Shown here: positions 914-37,462 of the stretch, piece by piece
Layout of the letters: the number at the start of each line of letters is the position of its first letter
How positions within the stretch are numbered: the stretch's first letter is position 1
Assembly: GCA_049975265.1 (NCBI GenBank)
Contig: JBNGDF010000023.1
Coordinates: forward strand, 1-37,462
Length of the DNA stretch: 37,462 nt
Source: Fidelibacterota bacterium
GTDB taxonomy: Bacteria > Fidelibacterota > UBA2242
Reading direction: 5' to 3'
Position numbers and translations under genes: made by a program
The notes under the pieces: model-generated
What the model was told of the DNA's origin: nothing
What the model saw: only the letters and a program-made list of their open reading frames with translations
The model's database searches: none

Positions 914-980
914 TTTTTGCGGAGAGGGAGGGATTCCTCCGAAGGAGTTCCTACGGAAGAACCCCCGTCCCGAACGAGTC
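914..980 (-). repeat. Direct copy of the tRNA-Ser 3' half interrupted in the T-loop by a 22-nt double mini-hairpin
   Basis: 914-936 is identical to 998-1020 and 959-980 is identical to 1021-1042. The insert 937-958 is ctcc-gaa-ggag followed by ttcc-tac-ggaa. Confidence 0.92.
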
Positions 981-36933: not shown

Positions 36934-36962
36934 TTGACTATCGCACTTTTTTCTTTTAAATT
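36934..36962 (+). promoter_or_regulatory. Promoter for tRNA-Asn
   Basis: TTGACT, 17-nt spacer, TAAATT about 100 nt upstream of the tRNA. Confidence 0.68.
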
Positions 36963-37061
36963 AGCACGCTTTTTACATGAATCGGATTATTGAAGTCCAG
37001 CAACAACAGGTTGCAGGTTCTCATGAGCATAGCGATCCATTTCGAGTTTTTTTAAATAGAT

Positions 37062-37134
37062 TCCGGCGTAGCTCAATCGGCAGAGCGGGTGGCTGTTAAC
37101 CACTAGGTTGTAGGTTCGAGTCCTACCGTCGGAG
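37062..37134 (+). tRNA. tRNA-Asn(GTT)
   Basis: TCCGGCGTAGCTCAATCGGCAGAGCGGGTGGCT-GTT-AACCACTAGGTTGTAGGTTCGAGTCCTACCGTCGGAG: acceptor stem TCCGGCG/CGTCGGA, canonical D and T arms, discriminator G; CCA not encoded. Confidence 0.97.
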
Positions 37135-37147
37135 CATCAATCAGAAA

Positions 37148-37405
37148 TTACCATATTATCTCTATATTCTATATTCAGAGTCTATTGATCGTTTTTACAT
37201 CGGTATATCTTCTGATCCGGATCGACGATTGGATTATCATAATTCACAACAAAAAGGTTGGACTCGGCGTGGACGCCCATGGCAATTGGTGTATATGAAG
37301 GAATATCAAGATCGACATGACGCTCAACATTGGGAAAATTGGTTGAAAAGGCAGAAATCTCGAGGCATTATAGAACAAATTGTTAGTCTTCAGATAGATA
37401 AATAG
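37148..37405 (+). CDS. Small stand-alone GIY-YIG nuclease (UPF0213-like), no canonical start codon (possible pseudogene)
   Basis: Not in the ORF track. Manual translation: LPYYLYILYSESIDRFYIGISSDPDRRLDYHNSQQKGWTRRGRPWQLVYMKEYQDRHDAQHWENWLKRQKSRGIIEQIVSLQIDK*. Shows YLYIL...FYIG, RR..H N, T...RPW.LVY and A..E..LK. The first codon is TTA, with no ATG/GTG/TTG back to the in-frame TAA at 37097. Confidence 0.88.
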   Translation, partial: LPYYLYILYSESIDRFYIGISSDPDRRLDYHNSQQKGWTRRGRPWQLVYMKEYQDRHDAQHWENWLKRQKSRGIIEQIVSLQIDK

Positions 37406-37406
37406 T

Positions 37407-37462
37407 CGGGTGGCTGTTATCCCGAAATTCGGGATGTAGGTTCGAGTCCTACCGTCGGAGCA
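37407..37462 (+). repeat. Copy of the tRNA-Asn 3' part with a palindrome replacing part of the anticodon arm and variable loop (reaches window end)
   Basis: 37407-37419 is identical to 37086-37098 and 37435-37462 is identical to 37109-37136. The 10 nt ACCACTAGGT are replaced by TCCCGAAATTCGGGA (37420-37434). Confidence 0.93.

Follow-up and report, generated by a model that had tools for sequence, protein, structure and literature searches.

Behind a tRNA-Asn gene of a Fidelibacterota bacterium lies a compact unit of 326 bp, which pairs a gene for a small GIY-YIG nuclease with a dead copy of the tRNA 3′ part that is split by a hairpin. On balance, this unit is probably a minimal selfish element, which would depend on host recombination and a nickase that recognises hairpins, with no need of an integrase. 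The window analysed here is 37,462 nucleotides long and is the entire contig C23 of the genome under study (G000; assembly GCA_049975265.1).

The unit occupies the right-hand end of the window (Table 1). The GIY-YIG frame is open from position 37100 to a TAG stop at 37403-37405, and the hairpin-split copy, which corresponds to tRNA nt 25-75, starts one base past this stop, at an offset of 326 from the tRNA. Compared with the whole genome, the copy is recovered with a BLAST E value of 6.6e-9. The frame has a G+C content of 36%, whereas the HIT and fusA genes next to it have 45-47%, and only 1.7% of equal-sized windows are this low. These results bear out an initial annotation made from the letters alone, which had described an 85-codon GIY-YIG frame directly behind tRNA-Asn, absent from the list of open reading frames and more AT-rich than its neighbours, followed one nucleotide past its stop by 13-nt and 28-nt matches to the tRNA with a palindrome substituted between them. 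No obvious terminator separates the tRNA from the nuclease frame, as judged by eye. In Rfam, the intact tRNA alone passes, with no passing match for the split copy (E 0.67 and 0.91), and RNA folding of the dead copy does not go beyond that of shuffled sequences (z -1.4 to -1.6).

Table 1. Features of the tRNA-Asn locus and of a second dead tRNA copy in the window (positions are those of the window).
Feature	Position	Strand	Basis or remark
tRNA-Asn(gtt), intact	37062..37135	+	ARAGORN; sole tRNA-Asn called by ARAGORN in the assembly
ACCACTAGGT, tRNA nt 38-47, the 10 bases exchanged for the hairpin in the copy	37099..37108	+	
GIY-YIG nuclease gene, 89 codons counted from a putative ATC start at the tRNA 3′ end	37136..37405	+	Pfam, alignment A1, dN/dS, structure model
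Copy of tRNA nt 25-37, 13-nt exact match	37407..37419	+	
Hairpin TCCCGAAATTCGGGA, insert typical of the Asn type 1 clade	37420..37434	+	Sixth stem pair covaries (31 variants)
Copy of tRNA nt 48-75, 28-nt exact direct repeat of 37109-37136	37435..37462	+	Contig end
326-bp repeat unit	37109..37434	+	Head-to-tail assembly in other samples
Promoter-like TTGACT-N17-TAAATT, 5′ of tRNA-Asn	36934..36962	+	Consensus likeness only, by eye; relatives have a similar motif in this position
About 70 extra bases between promoter-like site and tRNA-Asn, probably a decayed upstream tRNA-Asn piece	36985..37061, approximate	+	Weak likeness
Dead 3′ tRNA-Ser(cga) copy with the 22-nt T-loop insert of the Ser(cga) clade, no nuclease gene	919..980	-	Behind tRNA-Ser(cga), 1003-1091

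Upstream of the tRNA, the distance from the end of the HIT gene to the end of the tRNA is 210 nt, compared with 131-142 nt in the clean loci of relatives. The stretch at 36985-37061 has a weak likeness to tRNA nt 37-66: its alignment to the tRNA was equalled by one of 1000 shuffles, and the score of its alignment to a relative's dead copy was reached by 74 of 1000.

The window protein is a single GIY-YIG domain of 89 residues (Pfam PF01541, E 1.4e-15). Typical GIY-YIG enzymes carry a separate DNA-binding domain behind this module (PMC11893778); here, such a domain is absent, as the frame ends at residue 89. Residues of catalytic type (Y10, Y21, G23, R31, H35 and E67) are invariant in six homologues (alignment A1). 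The structure model (pLDDT 89.7) finds its best fold matches in UPF0213 and Slx1 (E 2.5e-4 to 1e-2), while matches to I-TevI and UvrC reach only E values of about 1.7, and the sequence profile agrees in placing Slx1 and UPF0213 nearest. NCBIfam gave no match, and the ESM Atlas gave GIY-YIG clusters only. The protein falls outside the Ssn clade, with four NTS-flanked proteins, used as proxies for SsnA itself and its CDD model, set apart from all tRNA-linked proteins by a branch of 1.08+0.28 (SH-aLRT 99; quick tree, 47 rows).

In the window gene and four close relatives, no ATG, GTG or TTG lies within 20 codons of the domain, and an ATC or ACG stands six codons ahead of it, exactly at the tRNA end. 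Consequently, the list of open reading frames contains only an internal piece that starts at a TTG. Across clades, 30 of 65 first units have a standard start codon at a distance of 0-7 nt from the tRNA end. Judged from the dN/dS of 0.06 between the window gene and its counterpart in G001 (silent sites are saturated in the other five pairs), the frame is under purifying selection and is retained as a protein despite its poor start codon.

These properties could also fit an RNA-level or host-useful module resembling toxin–antitoxin or defence systems, in which the protein acts on the tRNA or its precursor and the hairpin piece serves as a decoy, antitoxin or processing signal. The gene does sit in the tRNA trailer, with starts close behind the tRNA end, its selection persists in spite of the start codon, and a fusion with TrmH led to the suggestion that a prokaryotic relative of Slx1 works at the RNA level (PMC1564403). 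However, patchy presence, truncated or broken copies, tandem arrays and nuclease-free dead copies suit a selfish element better. To our knowledge, characterised GIY-YIG enzymes cut DNA, which also counts against a module of this kind. SsnA does not bind RNA (PMC11893778). A role at the RNA level is, in our judgement, quite unlikely.

Beyond the contig end, contig C22 opens with the last 55 nt of C23, and the join between the two rests on this exact overlap. Many contig pairs of the assembly overlap alike, so that the overlap alone is no proof of an array. C22 then carries a second GIY-YIG frame, which is about 40% identical to the first and interrupted by stops, and 3′ of it lie a dehydrogenase-like gene and other ordinary-looking genes (labels by eye). 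The broken frame is 69-79% identical to a second GIY type behind tRNA-Asn in relatives G018 and G023, where it is paired with another hairpin, TCCGGC-N4-GCCGGA, which replaces nt 25-34. From these identities, the tRNA-Asn locus appears to have received two arrivals, with the newer element inserted directly behind the tRNA, ahead of the older one, which is now broken.

Independent samples came from four public runs (X1, X2, X6 and X7) of four studies, out of 20 listed. All four hold a contig of 356 nt, that is, 326 nt plus a 30-nt overlap. The joint 37434->37109 is explicit in X1 and X7, and the 356-nt records of X2 and X6 fit the same closure. Because this contig closes head-to-tail, the unit is tandem or circular. 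Its depth was 26.2, 165.3, 18.7 and 7.7 in the four runs, against 6.6, 65.2, 2.4 and 2 for the upstream flank, although depth cannot be read as copy number. Upstream, X1 and X2 have in addition a 5′ tRNA copy split by a hairpin, which is missing from the window, so such pieces come and go between close strains.

The initial annotation had called the unit integrase-free and explained the contig end as an assembly break in a tandem array, with further units and raised coverage to be looked for in the reads. The duplication is present as a head-to-tail contig in all four runs, the unit is deeper than its flank in each, and no tyrosine integrase was found on C23 or C22. The array itself stands in part: head-to-tail units occur in other samples, but C22 carries a different, broken GIY-YIG frame and no identical unit, and the window's own assembly holds a single unit only.

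A duplicated tRNA 3′ part is otherwise the signature of integrase-made islands (PMC4383910), and a contig that ends on a repeat would suit either an ordinary att remnant of such an island or an assembly artefact. The search for integrases covered tyrosine recombinases (PF00589), and none of the six matches in the genome lies on C22 or C23. In the first 12 kb of C22, ORFs of more than 120 aa look, by eye, like housekeeping genes. Moreover, 326 bp is under the 2-kb floor of Islander, and the repeated fragment has an internal substitution. An integrase island was thus rejected for this locus as covered by C23 and C22, and an artefact was ruled out by the presence of the unit in four independent runs and the recurrence of its layout in dozens of genomes. 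Both readings are exceedingly improbable.

The design recurs at about ten tRNA or tmRNA loci of the same genome. Most of its 12 GIY-YIG matches lie behind tRNA-Asn, tRNA-Pro(cgg), tRNA-Ser(gct), tRNA-Ser(tga) or tmRNA, and several of these loci are partial tandem repeats. Perfect TCCCG hairpins are likewise concentrated: 17 of 37 lie within 600 nt of tRNA or tmRNA genes, a zone that makes up 2% of the DNA, with one of the 17 counted twice (in the C22/C23 overlap) and one inside a tRNA-SeC call. None of 23 control TCCGG hairpins is so placed. A genome-wide search of this kind had been proposed as a check on the first reading of the locus, and its expectation of further tRNA-adjacent nuclease frames and hairpins held. 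Hairpin-split copies without a nuclease gene stand behind tRNA-Met, -Ala(ggc), -Val(tac), -Ser(gga) and -Ser(cga).

Several side observations concern these loci. Nuclease-free dead copies of tRNA-Val, -Ala and -Met, tandem or single, are found at G000:C6:107260-107620 (-), C13:42746-43100 (+) and C56:137-420 (+), and carry one to several stacked hairpin inserts in the D arm, the anticodon arm and the T loop. Beyond the dead copy at 919-980 of the window there are perhaps the first codons of a lost nuclease gene. A further GIY-YIG clade lies 120-210 nt behind tmRNA (L001, at G000:C10:44099-44830, and L037, L038, L040, L263, L268 and L276) and has its own short direct repeats instead of tmRNA-derived copies. 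Lastly, two tRNA-Ser loci with nuclease units are present on two near-identical contigs with N gaps (G000:C6:1-3000 and C30:26600-29542), a duplication that is likely an assembly effect of arrays.

The association extends to relatives. The survey set comprised G000 and 40 relatives, of which the protein search matched 35 of 41 genomes, and all listed places were taken in, minus three in frames longer than 600 codons. A tRNA or tmRNA gene lies at most 700 nt upstream on the same strand in 67 of 111 small GIY-YIG loci (G000 included). Among the remainder, three loci have a tRNA or tmRNA downstream, 19 have no tRNA nearby despite long flanks, and 22 have no tRNA call but less than 350 nt of upstream sequence, many of them showing tRNA pieces by eye. 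There were 85 near-full units with an upstream tRNA or tmRNA and enough downstream sequence after duplicate records were dropped. Behind the gene, 72 of these carry an exact piece (at least 9 nt) of the upstream RNA, and in 39 a perfect hairpin touches that piece; the short matches include chance ones, and imperfect inserts are missed. Tandem units are directly visible at three loci of relatives (L013, L202 and L255).

Relatives also offer the empty site. Of their 26 tRNA-Asn loci, a few of which end early at contig ends, seven have a GIY-YIG gene within 500 nt, five have a hairpin without such a gene in the stretch covered and 14 have neither, so that clean loci are available for comparison. 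Both the link of homologues to tRNA genes and fragments and the existence of empty loci had been raised for checking in the initial annotation, and both were found. The same link emerges when the search starts from the DNA, with a 16-nt junction pattern. Among the matches listed (n=129), 24 run on into the hairpin; tRNA-Asn is nearby in 16 of these, and a GIY-YIG frame in 13 (two weak). The other 105 among the matches listed do not continue into the hairpin; none has tRNA-Asn, and one has a GIY-YIG frame (weak). A search with the alignment of the Asn type found 31 loci in the genome collection, from Neomarinimicrobiota, KSB1, Bacteroidota and a few others, with isolates of Pedobacter and Parapedobacter among the carriers. 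Narrow searches of viral contigs for a carrier gave no hairpin copies in nine pattern matches and no confirmed A1 relative in 103 candidate stretches.

Some small GIY-YIG genes of relatives have other surroundings. A separate clade (L034, L254, L262, L298, L280 and L297) has no tRNA nearby and short inverted repeats on both sides (TTCACCC.GTT.. / ..AAC.GGGTAAA; TTCAGCCCGT.GGAT / ATCCAACGGGCT), and resembles an insertion sequence whose sole gene is a GIY-YIG nuclease. Other small clades (L277, L278, L295, L292 and L300) lie amid REP-like repeats (GTCACCCTGAG.., GTCATTCTGAG..), with L292 and L300 clustering with the NTS-flanked proteins. Among tRNA-linked loci, the nuclease frame often ends within the tRNA-derived piece (L029, L017 and L019), and the frame of L029 passes through the hairpin.

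GIY-YIG proteins cluster by tRNA species. On a FastTree tree of 74 rows, the tRNA label changes 17 times, against a mean of 48.6 for shuffled labels, and none of 300 shuffles was as low. The same holds for the 56 rows from relatives only (15 changes against 40.6; 0 of 300). Host genus carries no such signal (39 changes against 41.4; 37 of 300 as low), and host family a slight one (13 against 16.1; 2 of 300). All trees were quick or FastTree trees built from few alignment columns. Since the alignment is short and kin share labels, the pattern shows fidelity to the tRNA and not its cause.

The inserts follow the proteins. Asn type 1, Pro and Asp clades use TCCCG..CGGGA, each at its own site, while the Ser(cga), Ser(tga), Ser(gct) and Glu clades have other inserts in the T loop. 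Among 31 Asn hairpin variants, 30 have a Watson–Crick sixth stem pair, in four pair types, and the seventh pair is unconstrained, which indicates that both the structure and the core sequence of the hairpin are maintained. Inserts of the Ser type are not confined to Ser copies: dead copies assigned to Asn, Met, Val and Pro carry them too, at the identical base following GGTTC, so that these inserts move apart from their home tRNA. Across loci, the length of the replaced stretch ranges between 0 and about 17 nt and does not always correspond to an entire tRNA arm, so that one cutting rule is not evident.

This correspondence of insert and protein bears on the idea that REP-like hairpins are moved by some other enzyme and that GIY-YIG genes merely hitch-hike in duplications of tRNA 3′ ends. 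Nuclease-free split copies exist in this genome behind the Met, Ala, Val, Ser(gga) and Ser(cga) tRNAs, and 20 of the 37 perfect TCCCG hairpins are not near tRNAs, as this idea would predict. Yet insert type would not be expected to follow protein clade, GIY-YIG frames accompany 13 of 24 junctions with the hairpin (two weak) but one of 105 without it (weak) among the matches listed, and other small GIY-YIG clades likewise adjoin repeats of their own. We find hitch-hiking very doubtful.

A different question is posed by the tRNA alleles. In 78 units, the 3′ end of the downstream copy matches the host's own allele in 39, another known allele in two and neither in 37. The proposal that every arriving element supplies a tRNA of its own and splits the gene already present was rejected, as a clear allele mismatch was found only in three genomes of one genus, and is kept as a lead; the greedy screen for mismatches gave many false flags. 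In these genomes (L046/L029 in G018, L048 in G023 and L050 in G008), dead flanking tRNA-Asn pieces match another allele than the intact gene. Alleles of tRNA-Asn are also patchy within genera, hinting at swaps of whole tRNA genes.

A free-standing homing endonuclease could leave such traces. It would cut both strands of the intact tRNA-Asn gene on a chromosome that lacks the element, and the hairpin copy would be a form of the target immune to cutting. SegB is a precedent that cuts inside tRNA genes and cuts donor alleles inefficiently (PMC13096335). The gene is present at 7 and both gene and hairpin are lacking at 14 of the 26 tRNA-Asn loci in relatives, clades follow tRNA species, a fixed 10-nt stretch is replaced by the hairpin in the Asn clade, and the differing dead flanks in three genomes look as if a donor had replaced the resident tRNA. 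Against this, an intact target lies directly upstream on the same chromosome, the bare 89-aa domain is closer in fold to Slx1 and UPF0213 (E 2.5e-4 to 1e-2) than to I-TevI (E 1.7), allele mismatch is rare (2 of the 78 units), and a break leaves the writing of hairpins into copies of other tRNAs unexplained. Homing of this kind is unlikely.

The preferred reading, a minimal selfish element with a hairpin-recognising nickase, can be set out in four steps. Firstly, the gene would be read from the tRNA promoter and weakly translated, in the window probably from a near-cognate ATC. Secondly, the single-domain Slx1-like protein would recognise the hairpin of its own element, in DNA that is single-stranded or extruded, and nick beside it, as Ssn enzymes do. 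SsnA, a bare GIY-YIG domain, cuts single-stranded DNA specifically at its hairpin (PMC11893778); since the protein studied here falls outside the Ssn clade, this step is only an analogy. Thirdly, the tRNA-derived arms that flank the hairpin would pair with the tRNA gene, and a crossover in the shared 3′ part would set the unit behind the gene and leave the gene intact. Further crossovers between the 28-bp repeats would give tandem arrays or circles; in a phage system, cutting of tRNA genes by SegB causes a tRNA-segB unit to amplify in tandem (PMC13096335). Such a crossover would explain the observed layout, the arrays, the circles and accretion. Lastly, spare tRNA copies would acquire the hairpin through repair; the absence of hits from the only functional tRNA would follow from their lethality. 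Of the minimal selfish element first suggested for this locus, which was to amplify in tandem, the integrase-free tandem or circular units at tRNA genes are upheld, but C22 shows no second identical unit.

A wider claim can be made tentatively, and we hold it to be a possibility rather than an expectation. These loci may represent a new class of integrase-free mobile element, built on a GIY-YIG protein of 85-90 aa. The hairpin-split tRNA copy would act as both handle and template, with the hairpin bound by the protein and the arms pairing with the target gene. Clade-specific inserts of 15-40 nt would be placed base-precisely into tRNA loops, and the element would move as a 326-nt circle, swapping tRNA alleles between genomes.

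No description of the tRNA-linked layout of GIY-YIG gene and hairpin-split copy was found in the open literature. The pairing of an enzyme with a hairpin and the action of GIY-YIG enzymes at tRNA genes are each already known; their union as a tRNA-specific, integrase-free cassette whose inserts act on other tRNA copies was not found described. If true, it would give a role to the very common group of ‘GIY-YIG nuclease family proteins’ without assigned function, and would account for the frequent breaks at tRNA genes, and for the pseudo-tRNA arrays, in draft genomes of these phyla. At 326 bp, the unit would be about the smallest thinkable that propagates itself, with its home inside essential transcription units. 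The matching of clade, tRNA and insert supplies ready test pairs for targeting by protein versus base pairing, and if targeting is by base pairing, the result would be a tiny programmable system for nicking or insertion.

Among known systems, the best sequence and fold matches of the window protein are Slx1 and UPF0213 (PDB 1zg2, 1ywl, 6seh and 7cq2). Slx1 cuts branched DNA together with a partner protein, and UPF0213 proteins are listed as hypothetical. A tRNA link of either was not found in the literature passages covered, except for one TrmH fusion (PMC1564403). Integrase islands, as catalogued by Islander, share with the present locus an intact tRNA, a cargo, a displaced 3′ fragment in the same orientation and tandem accretion (PMC4383910). 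The present unit differs in having no tyrosine integrase, a size of 326 bp and a conserved hairpin inside the fragment. RAYTs are Y1 (HUH) transposases and not GIY-YIG enzymes, and REPs are extragenic and do not lie in tRNA loops. The REP/RAYT systems, derived from IS200/IS605, are alike in combining an enzyme gene with cognate hairpins and in having non-autonomous hairpins elsewhere (in part from PMC11893778).

The closest likeness in enzyme and hairpin is to Ssn (SsnA, cd10448; Chenal et al. 2025, PMC11893778), a single-domain GIY-YIG protein of about 90 aa encoded beside its cognate hairpin. The core of the Ssn NTS also has TCCCG...CGGGA, and the Tyr/Tyr/Glu spacing matches (Y6/Y17/E64 in Ssn, Y10/Y21/E67 here). 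Only this core is shared: the present hairpin is without the non-palindromic NTS/SRM flanks and is embedded in a tRNA copy, and the NTS-flanked proteins lie across a long branch (SH-aLRT 99) from the tRNA-linked ones. The words ‘tRNA’ and ‘tandem’ do not occur in the Ssn paper (PMC11893778). The closest likeness in location is to SegB, a free-standing GIY-YIG homing endonuclease of phages T4 and T6, whose gene also lies in a tRNA locus and where recombination drives the tandem amplification of a 718-bp unit of tRNA plus nuclease (PMC13096335). SegB, however, is a phage enzyme that makes double-strand breaks at many sites, and its amplified unit contains a working tRNA (PMC13096335), whereas the nuclease studied here is a bare domain encoded on a chromosome, what is repeated is a tRNA copy that is dead and split by a hairpin, and every clade is faithful to a single tRNA.
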